This document shows, one piece after another, positions 3,458 through 50,425 of a stretch of 64,000 bases of DNA. Within the stretch, counting starts at the first letter, position 1; each line of letters starts with the position of its first letter. The stretch covers positions 2,619-66,618 of the forward strand of contig CAZLGA010000003.1 in NCBI GenBank assembly GCA_964559225.1, written 5' to 3'. The notes under the pieces were generated by a model that saw nothing but the letters and a program-made list of their open reading frames with translations, searched no databases and had not been told where the DNA came from. Both the position numbers and the translations under genes were made by a program. The DNA is from an uncultured bacterium. Its GTDB lineage: Bacteria > Hydrothermota > Tepidihabitantia > SM23-42 > JAOAFX01.

Positions 3458-3550
3458 AGTAAAATGCCTAAATGCCTAAAGTTAGTAGATATTAAATTTA
3501 GCCGATAAAAGATACCATAGAACGATACGGGCCGCGATACCGTATAACAA

Positions 3551-4768: not shown

Positions 4769-4866
4769 ATATTAAATCCCAAACAAGTTCCAACTTCTGA
4801 ATCCCAAAACCCAAAACTCAATCAACAACAAACCAATAAGTTTAGGTATTTAGGCATTTTGGATTT

Positions 4867-10200: not shown

Positions 10201-10229
10201 GGTTAAACGGGCAATGCGACCAACACCCG
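6880..10229 (+). repeat. 3350-bp direct repeat, copy 1
   Basis: Matches 11485-14834 (offset 4605); translations identical, no mismatch noticed by eye. Confidence 0.9.
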
Positions 10230-10276
10230 AGGATAAATTTTATGATGATTTTAACTTGACCAATCAGAAATTTTGA
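7232..10276 (+). CDS. Large secreted protein with putative glycoside-hydrolase-like core, C-terminally truncated copy (1014 aa)
   Basis: Signal peptide; GIFLDRDD, MANG, DAIMSEE suggest a TIM-barrel GH-like core; identical to 11837-15934 up to ...MRPTP. Confidence 0.55.
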   Translation: MAIQRSFLMFIVVLLCSGIVRFAQSATLCYGFTRVEGVRTNGVQIKAVYQNDTSIVLDTVSYHHPAYGDGYFHMSRSGVLPAGKYNVHFEYGNYLRNKVIFYDPEIGPVNMGDVGLVQVEYYSDDTIIILRNIQMEAVFKRQNGIIRGLTVKGHSGLLSLTQPGQIILRDTLISTEFQQTNGTVTHIDTNIISPNRVQVVFEVNFPYHRATINYTMDTLSLRWDSEVWLQNVSPSNDRALRLDFSLPLLDKMNYAFWADENAPYKIEDYFYKEIRYRQNWCVLPAVILYDTILDYGISFVCPFEGKKPALAFRLKKSPSVDTFRISYNYLRMGRQSGKHAQASLYLVPQAGDWRPGLAWMLDRYSEYFKPHPNSNVLENEGRFFMSGTWTWKEMFIFDTCETFKVKWTEYYSKPFFGLYAPQDRSQWRVVGDNETGLTYYQWFIDSMYHPNTSYVGTRRIIDSFYVHGVGTYPYFNASEVWRKWVATSGDTFPFDSCIAKYANGDTITGFKQCWTMNPDTNLCPENIPSWSAHIDSQCAAVLDSYPQAAGIFLDRDDYQDYDYAHNDSVSMINTTPVYMLGFALEEINEKICRRVHNKNKSIMANGPSGIEVCKNMDAIMSEEYFPPLGSAQYLGLARPMVLMVADTLARQTELKDKSALYSGYFPSLEHRVKESMSRVIDRKYNPLFELYKGRSWVLHPHALRLPSGTKGNIFKALNNDLLIPMVSMEKSQLLPDPFFYDLKVKVSVPDLNEYDHCYILSGDYIGPRWVYYSPSNQGFLTVPEHMVSSLIQLSRDPRYEYSLMSLPVLVRGRPGRFKIRVQNLESGIKTYTLSIITPFRSYNVRTFRLRQYEYRDVQYDFTIPETHPLGEDSFLVINTAPTPDDTALFTNWIVDQVSFGLPERLFIKFPLGDSFNLTLVNNTADTMHQMRLGYTFTQGHGRIEWGPKSFSLNPFEKKELPVEIDVRDTCGVIKIIATSAGDTVGSITRPVKRAMRPTPEDKFYDDFNLTNQKF

Positions 10277-11823: not shown

Positions 11824-14800
11824 ATCAGAAGATAAAATGGCTATACAACGAAGTTTTTTGATGTTTATTGTAGTCTTGCTCTGCTCAGGTATTGTGCGAT
11901 TTGCACAATCTGCGACACTCTGTTATGGGTTTACCAGGGTAGAGGGTGTCCGGACCAATGGAGTCCAAATCAAGGCAGTTTATCAGAATGACACAAGCAT
12001 TGTGCTGGATACGGTGAGTTATCACCATCCAGCTTATGGTGATGGATATTTTCATATGTCTCGGTCTGGTGTGCTTCCTGCCGGTAAATATAATGTTCAC
12101 TTTGAGTATGGCAATTATCTTAGAAACAAAGTCATTTTCTATGACCCTGAAATAGGTCCGGTGAATATGGGTGATGTGGGGTTGGTGCAGGTGGAATATT
12201 ATAGTGATGATACGATAATTATTCTGAGAAATATTCAGATGGAGGCAGTGTTTAAAAGACAGAATGGTATAATTCGGGGATTAACAGTTAAAGGCCATAG
12301 TGGTCTATTATCTTTAACTCAACCCGGGCAGATAATCTTGCGCGATACATTGATTTCTACCGAATTCCAGCAGACCAATGGCACAGTTACGCATATTGAT
12401 ACGAACATAATTTCTCCAAACCGGGTGCAGGTTGTCTTTGAAGTTAATTTCCCATATCACAGAGCAACAATAAACTACACAATGGATACATTATCTTTAA
12501 GGTGGGACAGTGAGGTCTGGCTACAGAATGTGAGTCCTTCTAATGACCGGGCATTGCGCCTTGATTTTTCCCTGCCCTTGCTTGATAAGATGAACTATGC
12601 ATTCTGGGCTGATGAGAATGCACCATACAAAATAGAAGATTATTTTTATAAAGAAATTAGATATCGGCAAAACTGGTGTGTTTTACCTGCGGTAATCCTT
12701 TATGATACGATATTGGATTACGGTATTTCTTTTGTCTGTCCGTTTGAGGGAAAGAAGCCGGCGTTGGCGTTCAGGTTAAAGAAGAGTCCAAGCGTGGATA
12801 CATTTCGGATTTCTTATAATTATTTGAGGATGGGCAGGCAGAGTGGTAAGCATGCTCAGGCATCTTTATATCTTGTGCCGCAGGCAGGTGATTGGCGTCC
12901 TGGTCTTGCCTGGATGCTTGACCGCTATTCAGAATACTTCAAACCCCATCCCAATTCAAATGTTCTTGAAAATGAGGGAAGATTTTTCATGAGTGGCACC
13001 TGGACCTGGAAAGAGATGTTTATATTTGATACCTGCGAAACCTTTAAGGTAAAATGGACCGAATACTATAGCAAGCCATTCTTTGGGCTTTATGCACCAC
13101 AGGACCGTTCCCAGTGGAGGGTGGTAGGCGATAATGAAACTGGGCTTACATACTATCAGTGGTTTATTGATTCTATGTATCATCCTAACACCAGTTATGT
13201 AGGCACGAGGCGAATAATTGATTCCTTTTATGTCCATGGGGTTGGAACCTATCCATACTTCAATGCCAGTGAGGTATGGAGGAAGTGGGTGGCGACGAGT
13301 GGTGATACATTCCCATTTGATAGTTGCATAGCAAAATATGCAAATGGTGATACAATTACTGGATTCAAACAATGCTGGACAATGAATCCAGATACGAATC
13401 TATGTCCTGAAAATATACCCTCCTGGTCCGCACATATTGATTCCCAGTGCGCCGCAGTTTTGGATAGTTATCCACAAGCTGCAGGCATCTTCCTTGACCG
13501 TGATGACTACCAGGATTATGACTATGCCCATAATGATAGTGTCTCAATGATAAATACTACCCCGGTCTATATGCTTGGATTTGCCCTGGAAGAGATAAAT
13601 GAAAAGATCTGCCGGAGGGTGCATAATAAAAATAAGAGTATAATGGCCAATGGTCCTTCTGGTATTGAGGTCTGTAAAAATATGGATGCAATAATGAGCG
13701 AGGAGTACTTTCCACCCTTGGGTTCTGCCCAGTATCTTGGTCTTGCCAGACCGATGGTCTTGATGGTTGCGGATACACTGGCAAGACAGACTGAGTTGAA
13801 AGACAAATCTGCATTGTATTCAGGTTATTTCCCGAGTCTTGAGCATCGGGTAAAAGAGTCTATGAGTCGGGTGATTGACCGAAAGTATAATCCACTCTTT
13901 GAGTTATATAAAGGGAGGTCCTGGGTGCTACATCCCCATGCACTTCGGTTGCCTTCAGGAACCAAGGGCAATATTTTTAAGGCCTTAAATAATGACTTAC
14001 TCATTCCGATGGTGAGTATGGAAAAGTCGCAGTTATTGCCTGACCCATTTTTTTATGATCTCAAAGTAAAGGTCTCAGTTCCTGATTTGAATGAATATGA
14101 CCATTGTTATATCTTATCCGGTGATTATATTGGTCCAAGGTGGGTTTATTATTCTCCTTCTAATCAGGGGTTTCTTACTGTGCCCGAGCATATGGTATCG
14201 TCTCTAATTCAATTATCCAGAGACCCGCGGTATGAATATTCACTAATGAGTTTACCGGTGCTTGTCCGGGGTAGACCAGGAAGATTTAAAATAAGGGTGC
14301 AGAACCTTGAGTCTGGGATTAAGACTTATACTCTATCAATCATCACGCCGTTTAGGAGTTATAATGTGCGCACCTTCCGGTTGCGGCAATATGAATATCG
14401 GGATGTCCAGTATGATTTTACCATTCCTGAGACCCATCCTTTAGGTGAAGATTCGTTTCTGGTTATAAATACTGCCCCGACCCCTGATGATACAGCATTA
14501 TTTACCAATTGGATTGTTGACCAGGTTAGTTTTGGTTTGCCGGAGAGATTATTTATAAAGTTTCCTTTGGGTGATTCCTTTAATTTAACTCTGGTGAATA
14601 ATACTGCAGATACAATGCATCAGATGCGATTGGGTTATACATTTACCCAGGGTCATGGTAGAATAGAATGGGGACCAAAGTCATTTTCTTTAAATCCCTT
14701 TGAGAAAAAGGAGTTGCCTGTAGAGATTGATGTTAGAGACACCTGCGGTGTGATTAAAATTATCGCCACGAGTGCTGGTGATACAGTAGGGAGTATTACA

Positions 14801-14834
14801 AGACCGGTTAAACGGGCAATGCGACCAACACCCG
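11485..14834 (+). repeat. 3350-bp direct repeat, copy 2
   Basis: Matches 6880-10229. Confidence 0.9.
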
Positions 14835-15934
14835 GGGATAAATTTTTTGACGATTTTAACGCAGGGAAGATGAGTGAACAATGGCATTTATGGGAGCCAC
14901 CTGCAGCCTGGTCTGTTGAGAACAGCAGTGCAAAAGGTAATGGCAATTATTCCCGCCACTTTGCTACAGTTGGTGCCGGTAATACAAATTGGACAAACTA
15001 CCGCCTTCAGATGAATACTAAACTTGAAGGTAGCACCAATCCTTTTATTCAGTATCTTAAGTCCTATCTCTATTTTCGGATTCCAAATAATGCGGATACG
15101 ATGTATTACCGATTTGGTATAAAGGGTGATGAAGCAAATCTTGTTCTTTTTAGGCGAGACGGGATGGATAACTGGACAAGGCTCGGTGATTATAGATTCC
15201 AAGCCCAGAAAGATGTCTGGTATAGCCTTGGAATAAGAATTCAGGGTAGCAATATTCGTTGCTATCTAAATGGTGAAGAAATAATCAACAGAAATGATGC
15301 AACATACACCAGTGGTGGTATTGGAATAGGCACTAACGAAGATTATATGACCAATTACTATGATGATATTGTAGTTCGTCCTTTGGTCTTGCCCGATACT
15401 CTCTTTGCAGATAACTTTAATAGTGGTCAGATGTCTCCTTTATGGGTTAGACATCTTGGAAACTGGGATATACCCCAGGATTCAGGATTTGTTAGAGGCA
15501 GTGGCACTGCGCACTTTGCCACGGTGGCTGAGGGTTGTGACTGGACAAACTTTAAATTTTCGGTTAAAATAAGGATAAAAGGAAGTGAGATTATGCCTGC
15601 TTTAAGAGGATATATGTTTTTCCGGGTGCAGGATACACATAATTACTATCGTTTTGGGATTTACGACCGCACCGGACTTGAGCTTCACAAAAGGGAAAAT
15701 GGAGAGTGGACAAATCTTGGCACCTATTCCTTCAAACCTGATAAAGATATCTGGTATAACCTTAAAATAGAAATTCAGGGTGCTCAGATTAAGGGTTATT
15801 TGAACGACACATTACGAATCACATATACTGATAATGTCAATCCCTTTATCAATGGTGGTATTGGGATTGGTGTTTTGGAACAAGAGGAGATGGTCGTTGA
15901 TTATGATGATGTTATTGTGCAACGATTATTGTAG
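11837..15934 (+). CDS. Large secreted putative glycoside-hydrolase-like protein with two C-terminal DUF1080/concanavalin-like domains (1365 aa)
   Basis: As 7232-10276 plus two tandem repeats FxDxFNxG...WTNY/F...YYRFGI...WYxLxIxIQGxxIxxYLN...GGIGIG...YDDxxV. Confidence 0.6.
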   Translation: MAIQRSFLMFIVVLLCSGIVRFAQSATLCYGFTRVEGVRTNGVQIKAVYQNDTSIVLDTVSYHHPAYGDGYFHMSRSGVLPAGKYNVHFEYGNYLRNKVIFYDPEIGPVNMGDVGLVQVEYYSDDTIIILRNIQMEAVFKRQNGIIRGLTVKGHSGLLSLTQPGQIILRDTLISTEFQQTNGTVTHIDTNIISPNRVQVVFEVNFPYHRATINYTMDTLSLRWDSEVWLQNVSPSNDRALRLDFSLPLLDKMNYAFWADENAPYKIEDYFYKEIRYRQNWCVLPAVILYDTILDYGISFVCPFEGKKPALAFRLKKSPSVDTFRISYNYLRMGRQSGKHAQASLYLVPQAGDWRPGLAWMLDRYSEYFKPHPNSNVLENEGRFFMSGTWTWKEMFIFDTCETFKVKWTEYYSKPFFGLYAPQDRSQWRVVGDNETGLTYYQWFIDSMYHPNTSYVGTRRIIDSFYVHGVGTYPYFNASEVWRKWVATSGDTFPFDSCIAKYANGDTITGFKQCWTMNPDTNLCPENIPSWSAHIDSQCAAVLDSYPQAAGIFLDRDDYQDYDYAHNDSVSMINTTPVYMLGFALEEINEKICRRVHNKNKSIMANGPSGIEVCKNMDAIMSEEYFPPLGSAQYLGLARPMVLMVADTLARQTELKDKSALYSGYFPSLEHRVKESMSRVIDRKYNPLFELYKGRSWVLHPHALRLPSGTKGNIFKALNNDLLIPMVSMEKSQLLPDPFFYDLKVKVSVPDLNEYDHCYILSGDYIGPRWVYYSPSNQGFLTVPEHMVSSLIQLSRDPRYEYSLMSLPVLVRGRPGRFKIRVQNLESGIKTYTLSIITPFRSYNVRTFRLRQYEYRDVQYDFTIPETHPLGEDSFLVINTAPTPDDTALFTNWIVDQVSFGLPERLFIKFPLGDSFNLTLVNNTADTMHQMRLGYTFTQGHGRIEWGPKSFSLNPFEKKELPVEIDVRDTCGVIKIIATSAGDTVGSITRPVKRAMRPTPGDKFFDDFNAGKMSEQWHLWEPPAAWSVENSSAKGNGNYSRHFATVGAGNTNWTNYRLQMNTKLEGSTNPFIQYLKSYLYFRIPNNADTMYYRFGIKGDEANLVLFRRDGMDNWTRLGDYRFQAQKDVWYSLGIRIQGSNIRCYLNGEEIINRNDATYTSGGIGIGTNEDYMTNYYDDIVVRPLVLPDTLFADNFNSGQMSPLWVRHLGNWDIPQDSGFVRGSGTAHFATVAEGCDWTNFKFSVKIRIKGSEIMPALRGYMFFRVQDTHNYYRFGIYDRTGLELHKRENGEWTNLGTYSFKPDKDIWYNLKIEIQGAQIKGYLNDTLRITYTDNVNPFINGGIGIGVLEQEEMVVDYDDVIVQRLL

Positions 15935-24005: not shown

Positions 24006-24078
24006 GCCAGCGTAGCTCAGGTGGCAGAGCAGCGGTTTCGTAAACCGCAGGTCAGCAGTTCGAATCTGCTCGCTGGCT
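24006..24078 (+). tRNA. tRNA-Thr(CGT)
   Basis: GCCAGCG acceptor, anticodon arm GCGGT-TT-CGT-AA-ACCGC, GTTCGAATC T-loop; promoter TTGACT-N16-TATAAT. Confidence 0.93.
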
Positions 24079-24128: not shown

Positions 24129-26306
24129 TTAAATGGACTCTTTTTTCTTCAACAATTCTTTGCTTGCAGAAGCAAGAACCGGGTCTTTTTGATTAGCAAT
24201 ACTCTTTAAAATATCTATCGCCTTTGGAGTCCCAATTTTTGCAATGGCGTGTAAGACCGATATTTTTGTTGTTTGAATTAAATCACTTTTAAAAAAGGGC
24301 CGCTCCTCTAAAATTGGAGTTAGATAATCAAGAATTGTATCGTCACCTTTTTCACCAAGAATTTCAATGATTGACCTACGGAATTGTTCTTCTTTTTCAT
24401 CCGGAATAGATCTGCGCTGTTTTAACCAGGTAGCGGTCTCAAGCAGCTTTTCCTTAACATCTTCTTTGGGTAACGATTTCATTGATAAAATCACCACCGA
24501 ACGATGTGAACTATTTAATCCAAGTTTTATATATTGATAAATATTTTCACCATCAATCTTGTTCAAACTTTCAATAGTTGCCAGTTGCACCCTCTCATCT
24601 TCATCCTCCAACATTTTACCAAGATGTTCTATTGCTGATTGTGCTTTTAATTCACCAAGAATATATGTACCATTGCGACGGACATACCAGTCGTGCGAAT
24701 CAAGCAATTTTACTACTTCAGGGATAACTCTTTCGCCCATATGAATAAGAATATCTATAATCTTCATCCTGACTGACTTATCTTCAGCATCCTTAAGAGT
24801 ATCAATAAGCATTGGTATGGAGTAATCAGCCATCGCAATCAGGGCATCCCTCGCCTCAACATAAGAACCCTGGTCCCATAAAAGTGAAACAAGTTCGGGC
24901 AGATAATTCTGGTCTTTTATCTCAGCAATTATCCTGATAACCATATGTTTCTTATCAAGTAAAGATTTTTCTTTGCGCACGAGATGCCTGCTGAATTTCT
25001 TAGAAATAAATTGCATAATTTCTTCACGCTGGTGTTTCTGCGCAATAACATATAATTCTTTAAGGGAGGCCAGTATTTTCTTAAAAATACTCATATCTTC
25101 TTCTGTATCACTTAATGTGTCAAAACGGTCAACCAGCAACCTAACAAGTTCATAATTTTTAGTCTCAAAGATTTTATTACTCAATCGCATTAGTTTGTCA
25201 ATTGCATCAGTACGATTCTGTGCTGACGAGTCCCTTAATTGCGGAAATAAACTCCTCATTTGATGTTCTAAATTCTTTTCCATTATTTTATCCGCAACAT
25301 CCGTCCCTTTTGTTGCTTTCATTTCACTCATCAATCGTGCAACGATCTTTTCAAAATTTATCTCCGGAACATTAACTCGTATTGAAGAAAGTATATCGGG
25401 TAATCGTGTGCCCGTAATATTCTTTAAAATATCAACAATTTCATCTTCAACATTCGGTGATCTTTCTTTTGCCTTGCTCGCAATTATATCAATAATGTCT
25501 TCATCCGCCATAGTGGGAATCAAACTTTTAAAAAGCATTGCAAGTTTCTTATTTTCAGTCTTATACCGAACTATATTTTTCTTAATGGTAGGCGAAAGAA
25601 CTGCAAGTATGCGTGAAAATATTATCGCATATTCATCCCATTTTTCTTCTCCATATTGGTTTGCGACCATACCTGCGAGTTTCTCAAGCCCATTTATTAC
25701 CTTATGAGATTGAATTTCTGTTGATTCATTACCAAGAACGCCAATTCCAGCAAGAAAACTGCCGAGCTGCTTTATTCGATCTTCTTCAGTCCAGGTTTGT
25801 TGCGAAAGCACAAGCGACTCTAAAAAATTTGTCCAATCAAGTTGTTTTACTTCCTCATCCGAACTAACAACACCAACACGATATTTATTTATTTTAATAC
25901 TTAAAATACCACGTGCCCTAACCAGAGCAACAATATCTCCATAATCAGCAAGGTCCGCAGGCGTGGCCGCCATCGCCAGAAAGAAAGCGCGAATTTCATC
26001 TTCCGGGGCATTTATATCAAATGTAATGCTTTTAACACCGAGACGCATAAATTTATCAACAAGGCTTTTCACAAGTGGTAATTTTTTTGATTCAAACCTA
26101 TCTCCACCCATCATCAAAACATCTTCTATTACAACAACAGAAATCGATTCCTGTTCTATTGGTAGTTCTTTCAGCAAAATTTTTATCCGTTGAATCACTG
26201 GTTTTAGTGATGGGTGTCCCTTGGGATAAATGCGACAGATATTGATACCAAGCCCGAGTTGTTTAATAAATTCAGTTTTAAATTCAATCGTTTGCTCATC
26301 AGGCAT
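24129..26306 (-). CDS. HEAT/PBS-lyase repeat protein with N-terminal domain shared with 33868 and 35423 proteins
   Basis: C-terminal repeats (DWYVRRNGTYILGEL, DERVQLATIESL); N-terminal IYPKGHP...LGVKSITF; third gene of cyclase locus 1. Confidence 0.75.
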   Translation of the reverse strand: MPDEQTIEFKTEFIKQLGLGINICRIYPKGHPSLKPVIQRIKILLKELPIEQESISVVVIEDVLMMGGDRFESKKLPLVKSLVDKFMRLGVKSITFDINAPEDEIRAFFLAMAATPADLADYGDIVALVRARGILSIKINKYRVGVVSSDEEVKQLDWTNFLESLVLSQQTWTEEDRIKQLGSFLAGIGVLGNESTEIQSHKVINGLEKLAGMVANQYGEEKWDEYAIIFSRILAVLSPTIKKNIVRYKTENKKLAMLFKSLIPTMADEDIIDIIASKAKERSPNVEDEIVDILKNITGTRLPDILSSIRVNVPEINFEKIVARLMSEMKATKGTDVADKIMEKNLEHQMRSLFPQLRDSSAQNRTDAIDKLMRLSNKIFETKNYELVRLLVDRFDTLSDTEEDMSIFKKILASLKELYVIAQKHQREEIMQFISKKFSRHLVRKEKSLLDKKHMVIRIIAEIKDQNYLPELVSLLWDQGSYVEARDALIAMADYSIPMLIDTLKDAEDKSVRMKIIDILIHMGERVIPEVVKLLDSHDWYVRRNGTYILGELKAQSAIEHLGKMLEDEDERVQLATIESLNKIDGENIYQYIKLGLNSSHRSVVILSMKSLPKEDVKEKLLETATWLKQRRSIPDEKEEQFRRSIIEILGEKGDDTILDYLTPILEERPFFKSDLIQTTKISVLHAIAKIGTPKAIDILKSIANQKDPVLASASKELLKKKESI

Positions 26307-26308
26307 AA

Positions 26309-26950
26309 CTACCTCATTTTCAATTTATATGCGCGCACCGAAATATAATTATCTATTAATTCACCATATTCTTCATATTCAAAGAAAGAACGAGTTGCCT
26401 GATAGAGTGATTCTCCAACCAGAACTACATCATTTTCTGCATTTTTTTGCAAAACAAGACTTTTGGCAAAACCTTCAGTAACAATGATTGCATTATGTAA
26501 ATCGCCTTTTATATTATAGATGGATGCGGATGCCATTTCTAACCCACATTTTATTTTACATTCTTTTATAAGTGGGAAAAACTTATTGTATTCTTTAACT
26601 TTTTTAATTATCTCTTCAATTGCCATAATTGAGAGATGCGGTGTATAACCGCCTTTCATGCTAATACCAAAGATACCAACAATTTCATCACCAATTACCT
26701 GATATAGTATACCTTTATATTTCTCAATAATTGCATAGAAACTACCGAAGAGATTATTCAAAAAATTCATTACATCTTCCGCGGTCATACTCTCACTTAT
26801 CCCTGTAAAGTCTGACAAATCAGCACGCAAAAAAGTCAGTGTTAACTCCTCAAGGGGTAATGTTTTTTCTAAAGAAAGTATCTTACCACAATATGGACAA
26901 AAATTTGCCTTTTCGGGTAATATATTTTTACATACAGGGCAATTTGTCAT
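26309..26950 (-). CDS. Zinc ribbon plus class III nucleotide cyclase domain, C1-like
   Basis: CPVC...CPYC; RADLSDFT and VIGDE keep both Asp; GFAKSLVLQ replaces TVNxAxRL. Confidence 0.8.
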   Translation of the reverse strand: MTNCPVCKNILPEKANFCPYCGKILSLEKTLPLEELTLTFLRADLSDFTGISESMTAEDVMNFLNNLFGSFYAIIEKYKGILYQVIGDEIVGIFGISMKGGYTPHLSIMAIEEIIKKVKEYNKFFPLIKECKIKCGLEMASASIYNIKGDLHNAIIVTEGFAKSLVLQKNAENDVVLVGESLYQATRSFFEYEEYGELIDNYISVRAYKLKMR

Positions 26951-29900
26951 TTAAATCTCCAGTAATCTGGTATATTCTTGCTTTTTAGTAAAATACGCAC
27001 GATTCTCCGGTTTCAATCTTGACTTGATGTCATCAAGAACATAAAGTGCCTTACAGCCATAATAATGTGCCTGTTCAATCTCATTATGTTCATAATAAAA
27101 TAGTGCAAGTTTACACAATGCCTGCCCAATCAATGGTGGATATTTTAATGTCTCACTGATAGTAAGTGCCGTTTTAAGATAATCAATCGCCTTTATCTCA
27201 TCAATGTCAGAAAGTAATATATAACAATAAAATTCAATTTCTTTATTGTTCAATTTTTGCGCCAGATTTAATGCACTATTAACAAATTCCCTTGCCCTTT
27301 CAACCTGATTCAGATTTATCAGGCTTATAGATTTTTTTAGATTAATCTCTGCCAGTAAATTATCACGCACCAGTAAGGAAATCTTATTATCAACAATATT
27401 TAAATAACGATTGACTTCAGTCTCATTTTTTTGCATCGCCTCAATTATCGCTAAATTAAGCGCAGATTTTAAACTGATTTCAAAGCCAATTTGCTCGGTC
27501 AGACTGAATGCCTCCTGAAAATATCGTTTTGCATTTTGTCCATTACCCACCTGATAATAATTTTCTCCAATTAAATATTTCAATTCTGCAAGATTGAGTA
27601 TTTCATTATCTTTTATTAAATCACTTTGTGCGTAGTTTAGGTACTCAAAACTTAGTTCATAATTTCCGAGGTTTTGATGCATTTTTGAAAGATTCAACAA
27701 ACACGGTAATTCGCCTTCTTTATAATCCTTATTGCGTGCGGTGGCCCAAGCAAGATTATAGTTCAATAAACTCTTCTCAGGTTCATTTTTCGCCTGATAA
27801 AGCTTACCCAAACCAGTATAAAGTAATGTAAGAATATCAACCATCTCTTCATTACACTTCTCAATTGCACCGATATATAGATCTTCCGCCTTTTTAAATT
27901 CGCTAAGTAAATAACAGGCAACGGCCAAGCGCTCGGTAAAAAGAAGGTTCCATTTCAATAAATTCAATTGGTGGGTATTTTCTCTGCCCTGTTCGGCTAT
28001 TGCCTTCATTCGCTGGATATCGCCTTTCAATTCATAAAGGTCACTAAGATTTAATTGACAGTCAATTATTTTCTCAACATCAATTACCCCGATATGTTCT
28101 TCTTCAATTCTTAAAACAGTATTGTAAAAATTCATTGCAGGTTCAATTGCATATAAAGTTTTTGCTTTATCACCCGCCAACTTGAAATAATAACCCGCCC
28201 TTTCAAATCTTTCACAGGATAGAAACTGTTGAGCAAGAACTTCATAATACTCAGAAAGGCAATTGGCATAAATATTTTCGAGTAATTCTGCAATCCTTTT
28301 GTGAATATCCTTTCTTTTTTTAATTGGCAGAGTTGTATATACCGCATCCCTTAATAGATTATGCCTGAAGATATATACCGGGTCTTCGCTGTCGCGAAAC
28401 TGGACAATATAATCTTCTTTTATTAAATAATCAAGTCGCTCCTGTATGTCGGGCACATTACCCAAAAGGTTTGTAATAATCTTTCGCGTAAAGCTGTATC
28501 CTATGACCGATGCATAATCAATCAATAAGCGATGAGCAGAAGAAAGAGCATCTATACCCGACATCACAACACCGTACAGATCATCAAGGAAAGGTAACCG
28601 TCTTTCTTTTTCCAAATGCCATTTACCCTCTTCATTTTGTTTGATAAGCTGGATTCTCTTCACATGCCTTATCGTTTCAATAACGAATAATGGATTGCCT
28701 CCGGATATACGAAATATGAACTCTGTAAGCGTTTCATCCACATCACAATTTAAAACATACTTAGTCAAATCTTTAACTGTATCAAAAGAGAGAGGAGTTA
28801 AATTAATGGACTCAAAGGGTTGATTAATTTTACCACTTATGTCATCTATAAAATTAACCATTAATAAAAAAATCGGGAAATCCGAGAGTTCATTAACAAA
28901 ATAATTGACCAACATTTTACTCAAATTGTCTGCTCGATTGAATTCTTCAAAAATCAAAATTAATGGTTTTTTATTACAAATTACCCTGAGAATATTTTTT
29001 ACCGCGCTAAATATTTCTTCTTGAATCTTCTGTAATTTATCACCCCAAACCCGTCGCATATCCGTTATAAAAAGATGCTTTAGACCTTGTGCATCCTGTA
29101 ATGTCAGATTATTGTTTAGCACAAATTTATCGATTTTTTCATCAATTTTTTTTATATCATCATATTCACTCAGGTTTAAAAGTTCCCTAAAGAACAATTT
29201 AAATGGATAATATGGACTATGAATCTCTACCGCACAATAACTTTCAAAAACATTAAAATTTCTGTCCCGTTTAATAAACTCGATAAATTCTTCTTTAAGT
29301 CTGGTCTTACCAATACCCATCTTACCTGTTATTGCACAAATTTTAAGAGTTTTTGTTTCATTCACCATTCTAACAGTATTTACCAATTTTTCAAATTCCT
29401 TTTCTCTTCCCAACAATGGAAATTTAGATGTCACTTTTTTTCTTTTTTCTTTTAATAACCCTTTAAGCCTATAGATTTTAACAGAACCAGTTCTGCCCTT
29501 AACCTTTCGTTCTCCGACGAAATCAACATCTACAATATTAGAAACTCCATCATAAACAGAACTACTTAAGTATATCTCATCAGGTGGGCAAATTTGAGTC
29601 AGCCGTGCTGCTACATTAACCGTATCGCCAATAATGGTTAAATAAGAGAGATTCTCTATGACATAACCAAAAAATATCCAGCCGGTATTCACCCCGAATG
29701 ATATACGCCAATCACCTAATTCCTTTTTTGTAACTTTATGCTGATAATAATCCTTTATCGCTAAAATGCACTCTATTGCCCTCTCGGGGTCATCACGATG
29801 TGACCTCGGAATACCAAAAGCAGCAAGGATACGATTATCAGGAAAAATTTTATTAGTAGCACCCGCGTATTTTTTTATAATATTCTCACAATCTTCCATT

Positions 29901-30133
29901 GCTTCAGCAAGATAAATTGCATTCTGACGGATTTTTGACTTATCTACAATCGTCGCTGTATTAATAAAATTAACAAAAAATAAAGTAACAACACGAGATT
30001 CACCACCCCATAATTTAACATGCTCGCTATCGATTTGAGATTCTTCGGAATAAACGAGTTTTGCCCCGCAATTAGGGCAAAATTTGTATAACTCTAAAAT
30101 TTTTGAAAAGTCGCAGAAATTACACTCCCCCAT
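26951..30133 (-). CDS. Zinc ribbon - class III cyclase (C2-like) - STAND NTPase - TPR protein
   Basis: CNFC...CPNC; LTIIGDTVNVAARL intact, first Asp lost (FFVNF); GKMGIGKT; YIFRHNLLRDAVY; TPRs; start moved to ATG 30133 behind TTGACA-N16-TATACT. Confidence 0.85.
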   Translation of the reverse strand: MGECNFCDFSKILELYKFCPNCGAKLVYSEESQIDSEHVKLWGGESRVVTLFFVNFINTATIVDKSKIRQNAIYLAEAMEDCENIIKKYAGATNKIFPDNRILAAFGIPRSHRDDPERAIECILAIKDYYQHKVTKKELGDWRISFGVNTGWIFFGYVIENLSYLTIIGDTVNVAARLTQICPPDEIYLSSSVYDGVSNIVDVDFVGERKVKGRTGSVKIYRLKGLLKEKRKKVTSKFPLLGREKEFEKLVNTVRMVNETKTLKICAITGKMGIGKTRLKEEFIEFIKRDRNFNVFESYCAVEIHSPYYPFKLFFRELLNLSEYDDIKKIDEKIDKFVLNNNLTLQDAQGLKHLFITDMRRVWGDKLQKIQEEIFSAVKNILRVICNKKPLILIFEEFNRADNLSKMLVNYFVNELSDFPIFLLMVNFIDDISGKINQPFESINLTPLSFDTVKDLTKYVLNCDVDETLTEFIFRISGGNPLFVIETIRHVKRIQLIKQNEEGKWHLEKERRLPFLDDLYGVVMSGIDALSSAHRLLIDYASVIGYSFTRKIITNLLGNVPDIQERLDYLIKEDYIVQFRDSEDPVYIFRHNLLRDAVYTTLPIKKRKDIHKRIAELLENIYANCLSEYYEVLAQQFLSCERFERAGYYFKLAGDKAKTLYAIEPAMNFYNTVLRIEEEHIGVIDVEKIIDCQLNLSDLYELKGDIQRMKAIAEQGRENTHQLNLLKWNLLFTERLAVACYLLSEFKKAEDLYIGAIEKCNEEMVDILTLLYTGLGKLYQAKNEPEKSLLNYNLAWATARNKDYKEGELPCLLNLSKMHQNLGNYELSFEYLNYAQSDLIKDNEILNLAELKYLIGENYYQVGNGQNAKRYFQEAFSLTEQIGFEISLKSALNLAIIEAMQKNETEVNRYLNIVDNKISLLVRDNLLAEINLKKSISLINLNQVERAREFVNSALNLAQKLNNKEIEFYCYILLSDIDEIKAIDYLKTALTISETLKYPPLIGQALCKLALFYYEHNEIEQAHYYGCKALYVLDDIKSRLKPENRAYFTKKQEYTRLLEI

Positions 30134-30320
30134 GCTAAAATAGTATATACAAAATTTATAAAGTGTCAATAGTGATGGTTAGTAGGTGCCGGGTTTATTA
30201 GTTCAGGATGATTCGTCATAAGAACAGTTTATTCCTGAAGATGAGCGATATTATGTTGATACGGCATGGTGAAAAATTCAAAAAATTTGAACAAATGTCG
30301 TGTTAAATGTCTTCAATTAT

Positions 30321-31121
30321 TCAATTTTGGGTCAATAATTTTTCAATATCATAATATTTTCCATCCTCGGCTGCAAGGACTAATATGCCGGTTCTCTCTC
30401 TCAATTGCCTTGCAATATTCGATGGACCCTCACGGATAATAGTCATACCAAAATGGGTGATAATAGCAACCTTTGGTTTAATACCTAAAATTATCTTTTC
30501 ACAATCTGAAACTGATAGATGGTCAATTTCAGAAGATTCGAGTTTCAAAAGACTCAATATGATAATATCACCTTTATAAGCATTTATCAATTGTGGGAAA
30601 AATTTCGTATCCACAATATATGAAATTGAATAATTATTATAACTTAATGTAAAACCATAAGTCTCAACACGATGTTCGTGCTTGATGGGAAATTTAATTT
30701 TTAATCCGTTTAATTCAACTTCAAATCCGGGCATAATTATTTTTATTTCTTTTAAAAACTCTAATAAATAATCAAATATTACCCCTCCTTTACCAAATGC
30801 ATCACTCGGTGCCAATAAGACTCCATTCTTTTTAAATCCACCCTGGGTTAACACATCAAGGTAAACATTTATATCTGCTGAGTGGTCAATATGTTTATGA
30901 GTCAAAATTATAGCATCAATCTTTTCAGGATTAAATTTGGGCAAATATGTTAAGAAGCGATAATATGACTCCGGACCAGGGTCAACAAGAATATTCTTTC
31001 CCCCTATTCTAAAAAAAATCCCACCGGTTGCTCGTAGCTGTCTGGCAATAACAAACCGTGCCCCACCCGTACCTAAAAAAATGATTTTGTCTTTCTTCGA
31101 TTCTTTAGTTTTTCTCGGCAT
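30321..31121 (-). CDS. Metallo-beta-lactamase-fold hydrolase
   Basis: FLGTGG, ILVDPGP, THKHIDH (HxHxDH), HLS and THFG metal motifs. Confidence 0.85.
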   Translation of the reverse strand: MPRKTKESKKDKIIFLGTGGARFVIARQLRATGGIFFRIGGKNILVDPGPESYYRFLTYLPKFNPEKIDAIILTHKHIDHSADINVYLDVLTQGGFKKNGVLLAPSDAFGKGGVIFDYLLEFLKEIKIIMPGFEVELNGLKIKFPIKHEHRVETYGFTLSYNNYSISYIVDTKFFPQLINAYKGDIIILSLLKLESSEIDHLSVSDCEKIILGIKPKVAIITHFGMTIIREGPSNIARQLRERTGILVLAAEDGKYYDIEKLLTQN

Positions 31122-33752: not shown

Positions 33753-33867
33753 ATAACACGTTCCCAAAATTTTGAAGCTTGTAATAATTATACCTGTTTG
33801 GAAGAAAAAGTCAACAATCAAAAAACAAATCCTTGACAATTTTCTATACATCATTATACTAATTGTG

Positions 33868-35430
33868 ATGGCTGTAAATATACAGGAAGTCGCGATAGAC
33901 CTCATTAAAACAATAAAAGCAGCACAAATCTATCAAACAAGTCATCCAAGTTTCAAAAATTTTTTTACCCAGTTTTACAAAGATATCACCCAGTATCTAA
34001 AAACCAGTTATGAACTCATTCTCAAAATAGAAAGATTTTCAATACGATACGAAGAAAGAATTATCTATGAAGAAACTGAAAAAGATATCAGTGTTGCCTT
34101 CAGACTCTTCAAAGATGGAATAAGGGAAATTAAATTTACTGAAGGTATCACAGAAGATGAACTATTGGTCTTTGTAGAAATCATAAGCCGTTCTGACCGT
34201 GACCAGGATATTGCTTTAAATCTTTGGGAATGCGATTTTTCACATATAACTTTCTATGTTGTAGAAGAAGAGGAAGAAGAGACACTCGTATATACCATAC
34301 CCGAATTACCAAAACTTGAAATAAATTATGATGATACGGTGCGAGGAATTCTAACCAAAGAAAAGATTGACTTTGCCGATAAAATCTCTACGGAAATAAC
34401 CCCCGAGGAATTAAGAACTTTAAAATCGGAAATCGGTGAAATAGAAAGTCAAACCGAACTTGGTATTGTAATCACGACATTGATTGATGTGTTAAAAAAT
34501 ACAAAATCGCCAGAAGTCATTGAGGCACTTGCTGAAATCCTTGAACTCTGTATCAATAGTAATGATTTCAAAAATGCAATTTTAATTGTAAATTACCTGT
34601 GGAATTATGCAGATATAAACCTCATCCCAAGAATAGAAAACGAAGGAATGATTGCAAGTTTTGCCGAACTACCGGATGCTCTTGATAACCAATCATTCAG
34701 CGACTTTGTTGCCCTGATTGGCTTTTTCTCAAAAAAAACAATTCCCTGGTTTATCCGCATTCTAAAAAATGTAAAAAATGATGAGCGCTTGCGGGTTCTA
34801 CAGGAACGACTGGCTTATATCTGTCAGGGTGATGTTGAACCAATTTTAATTTTTTTAAAAGAAAGGGACATTAGAGTTCTAACAAGTGCAATTGTAATCC
34901 TGGGAATTATAAAAAACCCTTCTGGTATTTCACACTTAAAAGCCTTAGCTCTGCATCCTTCTCCTCTGGTACGAAAGTCAATAGTAGACGCCCTAACTGA
35001 ATTTGGTGATACCAAAATGATTTCTGATTTCCTTGAAGATACGGATGTAAATGTAAGGATAAGGGCACTCCAGGCTCTGGAAAAATTAGGAGGGTACAGT
35101 CCTATTTATCAAAAGTTGATTAAAACAATAAAGCACCGTGAATTTCTTAATTTAAATTACAATGAACAGAAGGCATATTTTAATTGTCTGGTTGCTAATG
35201 GGAATAAAAAGCTCATAAAAGACCTGGAAAAAATTTTATTTAAATGGGTTTTATTCGGTAAACAGAAATATTTAGTAAAAAGACAATTATCAGCGCAAGC
35301 CCTTGCGAAAGTCGGTAATGAAACCGCCATTTCAATTCTCAGAAAGGGAATGCAGAAAAGGAATGAAGATATAAGGGCGGTGTGTGAAACTGCCTTGAGA
35401 TTTACAGAAAGGAAAAATAAAAATGAGTAA
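33868..35430 (+). CDS. HEAT repeat protein (partner of HD-GYP gene)
   Basis: IYQTSHP...FKDGIREIKF N-domain; HEAT repeats (PLVRKSIVDAL, VNVRIRALQAL); ATG 33868 lies 7 nt after TTGACA-N16-TATACT. Confidence 0.75.
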   Translation: MAVNIQEVAIDLIKTIKAAQIYQTSHPSFKNFFTQFYKDITQYLKTSYELILKIERFSIRYEERIIYEETEKDISVAFRLFKDGIREIKFTEGITEDELLVFVEIISRSDRDQDIALNLWECDFSHITFYVVEEEEEETLVYTIPELPKLEINYDDTVRGILTKEKIDFADKISTEITPEELRTLKSEIGEIESQTELGIVITTLIDVLKNTKSPEVIEALAEILELCINSNDFKNAILIVNYLWNYADINLIPRIENEGMIASFAELPDALDNQSFSDFVALIGFFSKKTIPWFIRILKNVKNDERLRVLQERLAYICQGDVEPILIFLKERDIRVLTSAIVILGIIKNPSGISHLKALALHPSPLVRKSIVDALTEFGDTKMISDFLEDTDVNVRIRALQALEKLGGYSPIYQKLIKTIKHREFLNLNYNEQKAYFNCLVANGNKKLIKDLEKILFKWVLFGKQKYLVKRQLSAQALAKVGNETAISILRKGMQKRNEDIRAVCETALRFTERKNKNE

Positions 35431-36790
35431 GCACGATAAAGATTTTATTACCAACCTTTATGCCCTTATAAAAGCGACTTTTGTCTATGATTTTAACAAC
35501 GATGTTGTGGTAAATCTTGTAAATAAGATTATGAGTCAGGCAACAGCTTTACTCCAAACAAGCAATCAGATTGAAATTATGAGATATCGCGATTATATAT
35601 TTTTTAATAAAATAAGAATGCGCTTTGAAATCGAAGGTTATGCGAGTTTACAATTCATAGAGGACAATTTAAAAAAACTTGGAATAAAATCAATTATCTT
35701 ATTACCAGGTTTAAAAGCCCAGGAAATACTGAAATTTGCATCCCTCTTTAAACTTAACCGAGAGGGATTTATTCAAAAATATAATGAAATCAAATTTAGC
35801 TCAATTAATGTTGAATTTTATACCGAGCAGGAAGAGACAATTCCTGAATTTCTTAAAGATGGAGAACAAATAAAAAAGACATATTTTAAGGCGTTAAAAG
35901 TAACAAAAAATTTAATACAGAACCTCTGGAATCGTCAACCTGTCGATACTAAAAGTTTTCGCAGGGTAATCTATACATTGATTGATAGTTTGAGTCAGGA
36001 TGAATTTGGATTAACTGCCCTCACTGCTATAAAAAATTTTGATGAATATACATATAACCATTCATTGAATGTCGGTGTCCTTTCTCTGGCTGTTGGTCAG
36101 CGCCTTAACCTGGAACGGAAAAATCTTGTAAAACTTGGAACTAGTGGATTACTCCATGATATTGGGAAAGTAGCAATTCCAAAAACTTTGATTGATAAAA
36201 ACGAACCACTGACGAAAGAAGAATGGGAAATTATGAAAAAACATTCGGTTTTTGGAGTAAGTGAAATAATAAAAACAAGGGGGCTGGACGATATTGCCTT
36301 TGCTTCACTTCTGGCAGCTTATCAGCACCACTGGAATTATGATGGAAGCGGTTATCCAGAAAAACTAAATCCCAAAATGCAACCCAATCTCTTTGCCCGG
36401 ATAATTCGCATCTGTGATGCCTATGATGCGATGACCACATCAAGGCCCTATCAGATTCTGGCCTACCTCCCTGCTGTAGCAATCCGAGTTATCTGGGTGC
36501 ATGCCGGGACTTATTTTGACCGACTCCTTACTAAAGTTTTCATCCAGATTTTAGGAATTTATCCGGTGAGCAGCTGTGTTGAGCTTAATAATGAAGAAAT
36601 CGCGATTGTTTTACGTCAGAACCCTGCTCATATTGATAGACCGATTATCAAAATTGTTTTGAATAGTAAAAAAGAAAAAACAAATGGACCTATTGTCGAC
36701 CTTGGTTTAGAGAAAAATCTAAATATTCTGAGGGCAATTTATCCACAAAAATATGATATAAATCCTGCTGAACATCTTATTACAATATAA
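35423..36790 (+). CDS. HD-GYP domain phosphodiesterase
   Basis: YTYNHSLNV, LLHDIGK, HHWNYDGSGYP, ICDAYDAMTTSRPY. Confidence 0.88.
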   Translation: MSKHDKDFITNLYALIKATFVYDFNNDVVVNLVNKIMSQATALLQTSNQIEIMRYRDYIFFNKIRMRFEIEGYASLQFIEDNLKKLGIKSIILLPGLKAQEILKFASLFKLNREGFIQKYNEIKFSSINVEFYTEQEETIPEFLKDGEQIKKTYFKALKVTKNLIQNLWNRQPVDTKSFRRVIYTLIDSLSQDEFGLTALTAIKNFDEYTYNHSLNVGVLSLAVGQRLNLERKNLVKLGTSGLLHDIGKVAIPKTLIDKNEPLTKEEWEIMKKHSVFGVSEIIKTRGLDDIAFASLLAAYQHHWNYDGSGYPEKLNPKMQPNLFARIIRICDAYDAMTTSRPYQILAYLPAVAIRVIWVHAGTYFDRLLTKVFIQILGIYPVSSCVELNNEEIAIVLRQNPAHIDRPIIKIVLNSKKEKTNGPIVDLGLEKNLNILRAIYPQKYDINPAEHLITI

Positions 36791-42181: not shown

Positions 42182-45100
42182 TTAAATTTGTAATAAATTT
42201 TTGAAATTTTTGAATTCGCTGTATATCTTTTTATTTAGATAAATATTGCGCGGTTCTCCCGCAGGTATTTTACTTAAGATTTCCTGGAGTATCTTATCGG
42301 CAACGGATAAATGATTCTTTGTTTCAGTTATCTTCGTTAAATAATAATAAACCTGAGCCAAATAAAAATTTATTATAAATTTAGTCTCGTTATCCTGCTC
42401 AACCTTTTCATATCCAAGGGCGGTTTTTAACAAATCAAGGGCAGTTAAAAGATGTGTAACGAGCAATTTCTTTTCAATAGTTGCTTGTTTTATCTTCGCC
42501 TTTACCCTGCCAATTATACAACTCAGTTTACTTTCAGGAACAAATAATTCTTCACACTTTTTTTCTAATTCTTCGAACATATTAAATCCCTGTTCATAAT
42601 TGCCTTTTTCTATCTCTACTTGAGCAAGACTTATCATTACTTCATTTGCCATCCTTACACTTCCTAATTTAATAAATATCTCATAAGCCTTTTTAAGATA
42701 ATATTCTGCATTCTGTATATCACCCTTCTCAAGATAAATATAACCAAGCCCCATATTTCCGTAACCATTACCGAGTTGATTATTTATCTGGGCATTTATA
42801 TGTAGATATTCATTAAATTTTTCTTCTGCTTTTTCTAATGCACCAAGTTGGTAGTATGTGTCGCCGATATTGTAAGTTGCAATCGCACGGGCAAGAAGAT
42901 TACCTGTTTTTAAATCAATTTCAAGTGATTTGTAAAGATATTCAAGTGCTTTATAATAGTCAGCTTTTCGCATATAATAGCCACAAATATTATTGTAAAT
43001 AACTGCTATGCCAGGTATATCATCTAACATTTCATATATCTTTAATGCCTTATTATACGCCTCAAAAGATTTTTCATATTCCCCTGTATGAGAATAGACT
43101 GAACCCAGCTGATTATAAACCCTCGCAATTTTTTTCCTGGTTTGAATATCAGGAGCATCTTTAACATTTGTTAATATCTGTTCGAGGACACTGCGTGCCT
43201 CTCTTAATTCGCCTTTAAGATAGTATATCCAGGCAATACCAAGCCAGGTATCAAATTTTTCTTCCTCCGAAAAATTTATAAGTAATTTTAATGATTCGTT
43301 ATAAATTTCCAGCGCCTTTCCATAATCACTAATTCTCTGATATGTATCTGCCATTTCATTAAGTATTTTGACCTTATCAAGTGTTGTGTGCGCTATCTTA
43401 AATGCCCTTTCATAAAGTTCAATTGCATCATCACTATACCCTATTCTGCTATATATTCCCCCTAACTTGCGCATTGTGTCAAAAATGGTTTTACTATTTT
43501 CATCGGTATCGGGTTTTAATTCTTTAAGCACATACACATAATACGAAATTGCCTCCATATTCGCGTAGCACTTTTGTGCATTTTCACCCGCTTTCAGAGC
43601 ATAATAAATTGCCTTATCTTTACAATCCGTCTTTGCATAATGTTCAAAAAGAATATCATAAAACTCAGCAAGCCGCTCCGAAAATAATGACTCAATAGTC
43701 TTTGCAACTAAAAGGTGTAACTCCTTCAGTTTTTTCTCAGGAATAGTTTTATAGATTGATTCACGAACCAGTGCATGATTGAATGTATAATCCTGGTTAT
43801 TATTTGTATATATGTAACCAATTTCTAAGAGTGGGCTTATTAGATTATCAAGATTATCCCAGAACCGCGTAAATCCCTGTAATACTTTTTTATTAAATGT
43901 CCTTCCCAAAACCGCCATTTCAGAAAGTAAATCTTTCAACTCAAAATTCAATGTATCATATGATGCCTGAATTATACCTTCAATTGTATAAGGAATATCA
44001 AATTGAATTTCTCTTTCGCTCGCCAACCACTCATTACCGCGTCGATAAATTATACCTCTCGAAATTAACAACTTGATTAATTCTTCAAGGAAGAATGGAT
44101 TGCCGCCAGCATCATTTACTATCTTTGCAATTAATTCTTCAGGCAGTTTTGATATCTTAAGTAAATTTCTTGATAATTCCAGAGTTTCTTCTTTGGTTAA
44201 GGGTTTAAGATAAATTTCATCTAATCTAATTTCATTCTTTAATTGTTCTTTTATCTGCCAGAATGGTTTATTTTTTTCAGGGCGCGAAATTAAAATTATA
44301 AGTGCTTTAATTCCACTATGTGTCTGTAATAAAAATCGCAACAACTCAAGAGTGGATTCGTCGGCAAGATAGAGGTCGTCAATACAATAAACAGTAGGGT
44401 TTTTTTCTACATAATTTTCAAGAATCTGACTTACGGCATTAAAAATCTGCAATTTTATTTCCTCAGGTTTTAAATACTTAACTTTTTCTTCGTATTTGGC
44501 GACAATTTTAATATTAAAAAGTTCTGCAATATACGGAAATATATCTTCTGCCTTCTCACCCATAAGTTTTTCAATGGAAGTTAAAAGTTTTGCCATTATT
44601 AACATTTCACTATCTTCGGTTCTTATTTCACAAATTTGTTTAAAAATTTCCACAAAGGGATGATAGAGTGTTTCACGATAAGGTGAACATCTACCAATAC
44701 ACCAGTTTATATTCTTTACCCGCTCCAGTGCCATACTCAATGATTGTGTGAACAGTTCTTCAATTAGCCGCGACTTTCCGACCCCTGCCTCTCCAAGTAT
44801 AAGAACAATATTACCTTTTCCCGAAAATAATTCTTGAACAAGGCTTGAAAGAAGTATTAATTCCTGTTTCCTATCCACAAGCGGTGAACTTAAACCCTCA
44901 ATTCCTCTTCTCTTTATAAATCCGGTCTTCTGTCTATAGACATTATACATGACCATTTCCTGTTTTGAGCCTTGAGGTAAAAATCGCAAAGGTTCAGAAA
45001 ATTCAAAAACCGGTTGAGTGATTTGATAGACTTCGTCGCCCACCAGCAATTCGTTTTCCTTTGCATATTCCATTATCCTTGCTGCAAAATTTACCGCATC

Positions 45101-48400: not shown

Positions 48401-48533
48401 GAATAATTAAATCAATAGTATTAAAACATTCATTTATAAAATCAGTTGTTTTCTCCGCCCCAATCTTATTGGTTAACTCAGTAAAGCCAGAAAGGTCAGC
48501 ATAAAGAATCGTTGCCAATTTCTTTTCATTCAC
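45466..48533 (-). CDS. Class III cyclase (C1-like) - STAND NTPase - TPR protein split by a frameshift at an A7 run
   Basis: 47061-48533: YADLSGFT, RHEGD, GEMGIGKT; 45466-47109: TPRs; joined by -1 shift at ACA AAA AAA (plus-strand T7 at 47082-47088). Confidence 0.75.
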
Positions 48534-50409: not shown

Positions 50410-50425
50410 ACTAAAAGGAGGTGTA

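Follow-up and report, generated by a model that had tools for sequence, protein, structure and literature searches.

In a 64,000-nucleotide stretch of DNA from an uncultured bacterium of the Hydrothermota (GenBank assembly GCA_964559225.1, contig CAZLGA010000003.1; the whole stretch is called the window, and all coordinates are its positions), three abutting open reading frames (ORFs) on the minus strand encode, in this order, a large cyclase-STAND-TPR protein (CycL), a small cyclase protein (CycS) and a HEAT-repeat protein. The ORFs and their coordinates agreed with a preliminary description of the locus, in which CycL and CycS were proposed to carry complementary halves of a class III nucleotidyl cyclase site. 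The locus thus raises the question of whether two adjacent genes, each with an incomplete set of catalytic residues, encode one cyclase. Based on catalytic residues, their conservation, gene order and relatives, CycL and CycS were judged to form, with a probability of roughly 60%, an obligate trans-heterodimeric class III cyclase with one active site, under control of the STAND and TPR regions of CycL.

Complementary catalytic residues in CycL and CycS

CycL matched the Pfam profile Guanylate_cyc (PF00211) with 41.8 bits over amino acids (aa) 48-224, corresponding to profile positions 8-182 of 183, and was aligned over the full length of the domain to CyaB, Cya2 and the rhodopsin-guanylyl cyclase RhGC, which places it in class III by fold and by sequence profile. 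The match of CycS to the same profile (24.1 bits, cut-off 21.9) was limited to aa 36-97, and a zinc ribbon was also detected by Pfam. Since only the N-terminal third of the domain was covered, CycS was modelled with AlphaFold2 (AF2). The model, with a predicted local distance difference test score (pLDDT) of 84.7, resembled CyaC, RhGC, CyaB and Rv1625c over ~185 residues (Foldseek probability 1.0, template modelling score 0.7-0.84). According to this model, the CycS domain has the class III cyclase fold over its full length and belongs to that class.

Residue equivalences were taken from HMMER alignments to the solved cyclases CyaB (3r5g) and Cya2 (2w01). In CycL, the position of the first metal-binding Asp is occupied by Asn (N55, in FFVNF). 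The motif TNKIFPDNR retains the Lys (K95) and contains an Asp (D99) that aligns with the second metal Asp of CyaB, LTIIGDTVNVAARL retains Thr, Asn and Arg (T166, N173 and R177), and VKGR retains the gamma-phosphate Lys (K212). In CycS, both metal Asp (D44 and D88) and the phosphate loop are retained in RADLSDFT and YQVIGDE, and Gln (Q84) takes the Lys position. The motif GFAKSLVLQ is present in its translation, and neither Asn nor Arg was found at the transition-state positions in any of three alignment registers (F161/L165, S164/Q168 and K163/L167). All motifs quoted in the preliminary description were found in the two translations, and the alignments agreed with it on both proteins: in CycL the first metal Asp is missing while Lys, Thr, Asn and Arg are kept, and in CycS both Asp are kept while Lys, Asn and Arg are missing. 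The second Asp of CycL had been called distorted; a one-residue insertion does follow D99 in the CyaB alignment, but the residue is aligned and has not been lost.

Conservation was counted by alignment column in 37 CycS and 29 CycL orthologues from WOR-3, TA06 and Stahlbacteria genomes. Only 8 matches were obtained when the CycL cyclase domain was used by itself in a word-indexed homologue search, and the CycL orthologues were hence collected from the loci found with CycS; they are 40-84% identical and come from 30 or more genomes. In CycS, D44, D88 and the phosphate-loop residues F48 and T49 are invariant (37/37), the Lys position is Gln in 36/37, and Asn and Arg are absent from all 37 sequences. 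D99, T166, N173 and R177 of CycL are likewise invariant (29/29), and the gamma-phosphate position is Lys in 26 sequences and Arg in three. The first metal position of CycL holds Asn in 17 orthologues, Ser in six, Asp in three, Gln in two and Gly in one, and its phosphate (GFT) loop at residues 58-60 is degenerate. At the position of K95, Arg was counted 13 times, Lys nine times and Gln three times, with Glu, Val, Asp and Tyr in the rest.

In each family, only 13-14% of the cyclase-domain columns are invariant. This small set includes every side-specific catalytic position, and the complementary positions fall in the variable half, so the pattern is above chance. As read from these counts, selection maintains the C1-type positions in CycS and the C2-type positions in CycL, and the reciprocal positions of CycL drift. 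The two residue sets are complementary and each is conserved, as in heterodimeric C1/C2-type cyclases. Neither protein has the residues of a self-sufficient homodimer, CycS being without Asn and Arg throughout and CycL without the first metal Asp in 26/29 orthologues and with a degenerate phosphate loop. The four zinc-ribbon Cys are also kept in both alignments.

The NTPase of CycL (AAA_16, 46 bits in Pfam) has the Walker A motif GKMGIGKT and the Walker B motif LILIFEEF, and with its helical TPR sensor it was classified as a STAND NTPase. Among 33 CycL sequences, Walker A (GxxGxGK[ST]) is present in 33 and Walker B (hhhhFE[ED]F) in 31.

The three-gene cassette and its relatives

The CycS family is small: it forms 31 clusters at 90% identity, and among 1.8 billion proteins only 8 representatives (50% identity) scored below E 1e-30. 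In a scan with one genome per species, 31 CycS loci were found, all in metagenome-assembled genomes (MAGs) of WOR-3, TA06 or Stahlbacteria. The ORFs of every fetched locus were compared by BLASTP. In every CycS locus with enough DNA (~35 loci), CycL directly precedes CycS and the HEAT gene directly follows it, all on one strand, and at the junctions the genes overlap or are 0-3 nucleotides (nt) apart; the sole exception (L033) is on a contig that extends just 137 nt upstream of CycS. When the HEAT protein (149 clusters, all ~725 aa) was taken as the starting point, the same order was recovered in 3/3 long contigs. The flanking genes vary from locus to locus and the order is fixed, which argues that the three genes stay together as one unit. 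Across genomes, identity also rises and falls in parallel for the three proteins, usually in the ranking HEAT > CycS > CycL. Co-occurrence of the C1-like/C2-like pair in related genomes had been suggested as a check, and the pair was found adjacent, together with the HEAT gene, wherever the DNA extends.

In the window, the ATG of CycS directly abuts the stop codon of CycL, and the ATG of the HEAT gene is 2 nt past the stop of CycS. A sigma-70-like promoter match (Table 1) ends 9 nt before the CycL ATG. The alternative CycL start given by the ORF finder, a TTG at 30169, is the -35 hexamer of this promoter-like site, and the ATG at 30133 is therefore the likely start. Judged from this layout, CycL and CycS are co-transcribed and probably translationally coupled.

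The third protein matched HEAT_2 in Pfam with 89 bits and forms a tandem alpha-solenoid, in agreement with a HEAT-repeat protein. Its AF2 model (pLDDT 82) begins with a compact alpha/beta domain (aa 1-140), which a disordered linker (~aa 143-170) joins to a long alpha-solenoid, and Foldseek searches with this model returned generic HEAT/ARM scaffolds only (PP2A-A, SF3B1, importin-beta and CAND1). The N-terminal domain contains an invariant YPxGHP motif and several invariant charged residues; no match to it was found in Pfam (E up to 5), in NCBIfam or in a sequence profile search of the PDB, nor with whole-chain Foldseek. The high conservation of the HEAT protein argues for a core component rather than an accessory one. 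A second HEAT protein (552 aa) is encoded elsewhere in the window, where it overlaps the start of an HD_5 (HD-GYP-type) phosphohydrolase gene (33772-36790, plus strand). Its N-terminus has an IYxxxHPS motif and weakly resembles the N-terminal domain of the cassette protein in a BLASTP sub-alignment (E 0.43), which a family hidden Markov model did not confirm; a link between the two is therefore a lead at most.

With the CycS profile, the next matches after its own family were zinc-ribbon-cyclase-AAA_16-TPR proteins and tandem cyclase-cyclase-AAA_16(-TPR) proteins. In the tandem proteins inspected (P0166, P0169, P0170, P0173 and P0175), the first domain was the best CycS match. P0166 is a clear case of a C1-like and a C2-like domain in cis, followed by AAA_16 and TPR: its first domain keeps both Asp and the Lys and has Trp in place of the Arg, and its second has Asn and Ser at the metal positions and keeps the Asn and Arg. 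P0170, a metagenomic protein of 780 aa, combines a zinc ribbon with a C1-like domain, a zinc ribbon with a cyclase domain and AAA_16 in one chain, colinear with CycS followed by CycL. The first module of P0170 could be aligned gap-free with CycS (E 9e-18), and the second, together with the STAND region, was aligned with CycL 1-500 (E 9e-31); identity to the window proteins is only 23-25%. As in CycS, Asn and Arg are lost from the first domain of P0170, and as in CycL they are kept in the second; unlike CycL, the second domain still has both metal Asp, and P0170 is a single chain instead of two genes. From these alignments, P0170 is a fusion analogue of CycS plus CycL. Most single-domain zinc-ribbon-cyclase-STAND-TPR relatives retain the full catalytic set. 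Among 150 representatives sorted by a regular expression for the Asn/Arg motifs, canonical proteins of this kind were flagged as C1-like because the expression was too strict; by eye these keep the Asn and Arg, and the sorting gives no support for widespread C1-like single-domain STAND cyclases.

The own zinc ribbon of each gene, the C2-like-first order and the architectures of the relatives point to a zinc-ribbon-cyclase unit that was duplicated and whose copies then subfunctionalised, and fit less well with the simple splitting of a C1-C2-STAND gene.

A second complementary cyclase pair was found in the window (42182-48533, minus strand), and the residues that its two genes keep and lose are given in Table 1. 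A TPR-only ORF lies between these genes and overlaps the first of them by 49 nt in another frame; given this overlap, the first gene may be a frameshifted cyclase-STAND-TPR gene.

Table 1. Positions in the window of the cassette, its domains and the features discussed in the text
Feature	Position	Strand	Basis or remarks
CycL, 1060 aa	26951..30133	-	Zinc ribbon, C2-like class III cyclase domain, STAND (AAA_16) NTPase, TPR
CycL zinc ribbon CxxC...CxxC, aa 4-24	30062..30124	-	Translation; Cys pairs kept in orthologues
CycL cyclase domain, aa 45-225	29459..30001	-	Pfam, PDB alignments, column counts
CycL STAND NTPase core, aa 240-482	28688..29416	-	Pfam AAA_16, ATPase_2
CycL C-terminal TPR/MalT-like sensor region, ~aa 650-1060	26954..28186	-	Pfam TPR_12, TPR_8, TPR_MalT
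CycS, 213 aa	26309..26950	-	Zinc ribbon and C1-like class III cyclase domain
CycS cyclase domain, aa 36-213	26312..26845	-	PDB alignments, family alignment
HEAT protein, 725 aa	24129..26306	-	N-terminal alpha/beta domain, disordered linker, alpha-solenoid with HEAT_2 repeats
Sigma-70-like promoter, TTGACA-16 nt-TATACT	30142..30169	-	11/12 matches; consensus match only
tRNA-Thr (CGT)	24006-24078	+	Just past the 3' end of the HEAT gene; marks operon end
MBL-fold hydrolase	30321-31121	-	Adjoins the cassette, upstream
Second pair, C1-like cyclase and AAA_16	47061-48533	-	ILYADLSGFT and RHEGD keep both Asp; Asn/Arg lost in YGHLFEEVSHLEE
Second pair, C2-like cyclase, then AAA_16-TPR	42182-45493	-	First Asp is Glu, second Asp is Lys; Lys, Thr, Asn and Arg kept in DKHEGK and YTVMGDAVNFAARI
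TPR-only ORF	45466-47109	-	Between the second-pair genes

Upstream of the cassette on the same strand, Pfam identified genes for a metallo-beta-lactamase (MBL)-fold hydrolase, gmk, yicC, dtd and a DJ-1/PfpI protein. The MBL-fold protein matched a model of cyclic-nucleotide-degrading phosphodiesterases faintly (E 0.0027), with better partial matches to RNase Z and PhnP; its gene is not in the orthologous loci and was rejected as a conserved phosphodiesterase of the cassette. Elsewhere in the window, a GAF-sigma54 activator (58356-59852, plus strand) is a possible candidate for a downstream receptor, since GAF domains can bind cyclic nucleotides, and a PTS EIIA-2 (PtsN-like) protein is encoded at 50375-50887 (plus strand). 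In an SOS-type mutagenesis cluster (704-5430, minus strand), LexA (4867-5430) and a Y-family polymerase (IMS, 3551-4768) are encoded together with a DNA polymerase III alpha-like protein that is short, at 917 aa (704-3457). Two out-of-frame short ORFs on the plus strand (8781-8945 and 13386-13550) had equal profile scores and identical 35-residue aligned peptides, which indicates that the large genes 7232-10276 and 11837-15934 share a repeated stretch of DNA. Type IX secretion sorting domains encoded elsewhere in the window, together with the named homologues, assign the bacterium to candidate division WOR-3.

A proposed shared active site and its alternatives

In the proposed mechanism, CycL and CycS would pair head-to-tail, giving an asymmetric class III nucleotidyl cyclase that has one catalytic site. 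The metal-binding D44 and D88 and the phosphate-binding loop (xxFT) of this site would come from CycS. CycL would add the base-pocket T166, the usually basic residue at K95 (Lys or Arg in 22/29 orthologues), the Asn173 and Arg177 of the transition state and, for the gamma-phosphate, Lys212. A second, pseudo-symmetric site, formed by N55 and D99 of CycL and by Q84, F161 and Q168 of CycS, would be catalytically dead and yet conserved, and may bind a regulator. The STAND NTPase and TPR region of CycL would most likely act as an on/off switch through a ligand- or nucleotide-dependent conformational change or oligomerisation, and the HEAT protein would either join the complex as its third subunit or be a regulator or target of it.

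This heterodimer is favoured because of the reciprocal conservation of the two residue sets, the CycL-CycS-HEAT synteny, the abutting codons, the single-chain analogue, the equally complementary second pair in the window and the kept Walker motifs of the STAND region. The preliminary proposal of complementary half-sites in one operon with a HEAT protein, sharing one active site, is in this way strongly corroborated by comparison among genomes. Three of its further claims need to be modified or given up. That Lys plus Thr suggests ATP does not hold for the family, in which K95 varies; a Lys/Arg and Thr pocket would fit bicarbonate-type (class IIIb) adenylyl cyclases, and cyclic AMP (cAMP) is kept as a default guess for the product, given the variable Lys position. 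The description as a soluble adenylyl cyclase (sAC) split in trans is an analogy, since gene order and the own zinc ribbons fit duplication better and the bicarbonate positions of CycS are not basic. The HEAT protein is indeed co-encoded with the pair, but for the scaffold function assigned to it the evidence is this co-occurrence.

Several observations weigh against a heterodimeric enzyme. Both domains are divergent, as seen from their Pfam scores (41.8 bits for CycL and 24.1 for CycS), and the CycS profile did not recover the CycL domain at E<1e-3. The Lys position of CycL is among the more variable columns (entropy 2.05 bits), the insertion noted above directly follows D99, and the 3/29 orthologues with Asp at the first metal position are possibly active alone. 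The cyclase domain of CycL is disrupted in 2 of ~33 loci. One of these (L002) has a frameshift within the domain (L002 4827-5330), and the other, on a closed WOR-3 MAG chromosome (L024; CP070802.1, 3500-6000), encodes an N-terminally shortened CycL of 655 aa without cyclase domain and P-loop; CycS and the HEAT protein are intact in both. Finally, no cyclic-nucleotide receptor or dedicated phosphodiesterase was found in the conserved cassette when the orthologous loci were compared.

Most of these points would also be expected of a pseudo-enzyme signalling hub, in which the cyclase-like pair would have ceased to produce cyclic nucleotides and would be a heterodimerisation or nucleoside triphosphate-sensing module linking the STAND-TPR switch to the HEAT protein. 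The divergent domains with low Pfam scores, the variable Lys and first metal positions of CycL, the insertion beside D99 and the missing cyclic-nucleotide effector would all fit such a hub, as would the persistence of CycS and HEAT where the cyclase domain of CycL is broken and the fact that HEAT, rather than either cyclase, is the best conserved member. A mere binding module, however, has no need for the transition-state Asn and Arg plus both metal Asp, and here the full catalytic set is divided precisely between CycS and CycL and does not change over 40-88% sequence divergence, which makes a hub of this kind unlikely.

It was also considered whether CycL is itself the enzyme, as a homodimer or STAND-driven oligomer, with CycS as a regulatory subunit that titrates it into heterodimers which are inactive or under different regulation. 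Homodimers are the general rule among bacterial class III cyclases (PMC9552081), most single-domain relatives with the architecture of CycL have a complete catalytic set, D99 is invariant, and Asp occurs at the first metal position in 3/29 orthologues. For the same two reasons of D99 and the three orthologues, the earlier statement that neither protein is active as a homodimer is likely without being universal. In the other 26/29, however, Asn, Ser, Gln or Gly at the first metal position and the degenerate phosphate loop would leave no two-metal site, and a plain inhibitor would not need the invariant D44, D88 and FT of CycS. An enzyme of CycL alone is for these reasons rather improbable.

A Pycsar-like anti-phage module making a pyrimidine cyclic nucleotide, suggested by weak PADLOC matches to PycC (best 33 bits), the variable base-specifying position of CycL and the frequency of STAND-TPR architectures in defence systems, was rejected as highly improbable, since PycC is itself a class III homologue whose matches are weaker than those of Pfam Guanylate_cyc, no adjacent effector with a cyclic-nucleotide-binding domain was found, the cassette is phylum-wide with co-varying identities as in vertical descent and has housekeeping flanks (gmk, yicC, dtd and tRNA-Thr), and no relatives were found among viral contigs.

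Comparison with known cyclases and significance

The heterodimer proposed for CycL and CycS resembles the C1/C2 pair of mammalian membrane adenylyl cyclases and engineered mutants of Rv1625c in having one site at the interface and a degenerate second site. In Rv1625c, mutants with complementary defects in the metal site and in the transition-state residues reportedly regained activity when mixed (Guo et al. 2001). The split of roles would also be the same as in mammalian C1/C2, where one domain gives the metal Asp and the phosphate loop and the other the base pocket, the Asn and Arg and the gamma-phosphate Lys. In contrast to the mammalian enzymes, the halves would be separate polypeptides of adjacent bacterial genes, each preceded by a zinc ribbon, without membrane anchors or cyclase-transducer helices, and the base-pocket Lys is not conserved.

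Full-length sAC (ADCY10) consists of C1, C2 and a STAND P-loop region, and no STAND regulator has been identified so far (PMC12802110). The bacterial tandem proteins P0166, P0169, P0173 and P0175 share with sAC and with the cassette the combination of C1-like and C2-like domains with a STAND P-loop NTPase and TPR. Unlike the one-polypeptide sAC, the cassette has C1 and C2 on different chains, in the order C2-like-STAND-TPR and then C1-like, and a HEAT partner. The Thr of CycL stands at the Asp1018 position, as in sAC and the class IIIb group. The bicarbonate-binding residues of human sAC are presumably Lys95 and Arg176; CycS has no basic residues at the corresponding positions, with Gln (Q84, 36/37) at the first position and L/Q165, L167 or Q168 at the second, depending on the register.

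In the mycobacterial proteins Rv0386, Rv1358 and Rv2488c, as in CycL, a class III cyclase at the N-terminus precedes an AAA_16/NB-ARC-like NTPase and TPR. Unlike the cassette, they have one cyclase domain, which presumably works as a homodimeric site, and a C-terminal LuxR helix-turn-helix, and are without a C1-like partner or HEAT gene. Animal soluble guanylyl cyclase alpha/beta and the heterodimeric chytrid rhodopsin-cyclases are obligate heterodimers of two gene products, with one catalytic site and a degenerate one (PMC6005667, PMC8815786). These are eukaryotic proteins with H-NOX/PAS or rhodopsin sensors and coiled-coil dimerisation elements, the latter not being present in CycL and CycS. 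Bacterial class III cyclases are described as homodimers with two productive centres, and the asymmetric one-site design as a product of eukaryotic gene fusion (PMC9552081). In the literature outside subscription journals, no specific description was found of the WOR-3 cassette or of a bacterial class III cyclase that is naturally a heterodimer encoded by two genes.

Tentatively, and at somewhat less than even odds, obligate two-gene heterodimeric cyclases could be standard in the WOR-3 group, the window alone having two such pairs. They would have one catalytic site and one conserved regulatory pseudo-site and be switched by STAND-TPR in a fixed three-protein complex whose true sensor or target would be the new N-terminal domain of the HEAT protein. 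Such a design would be a prokaryotic, genetically separable counterpart of full-length sAC.

If the heterodimer is correct, the asymmetric one-site design would also have evolved in prokaryotes and been maintained there in trans, which would change the view of bacterial class III cyclases as homodimers. The cassette would also be a simple system for expressing and mutating each component on its own, from the catalytic and regulatory halves to the STAND-TPR switch and the partner protein, which would be relevant to full-length sAC. It also offers the first clue to the function of a highly conserved set of three genes in an uncultured phylum.

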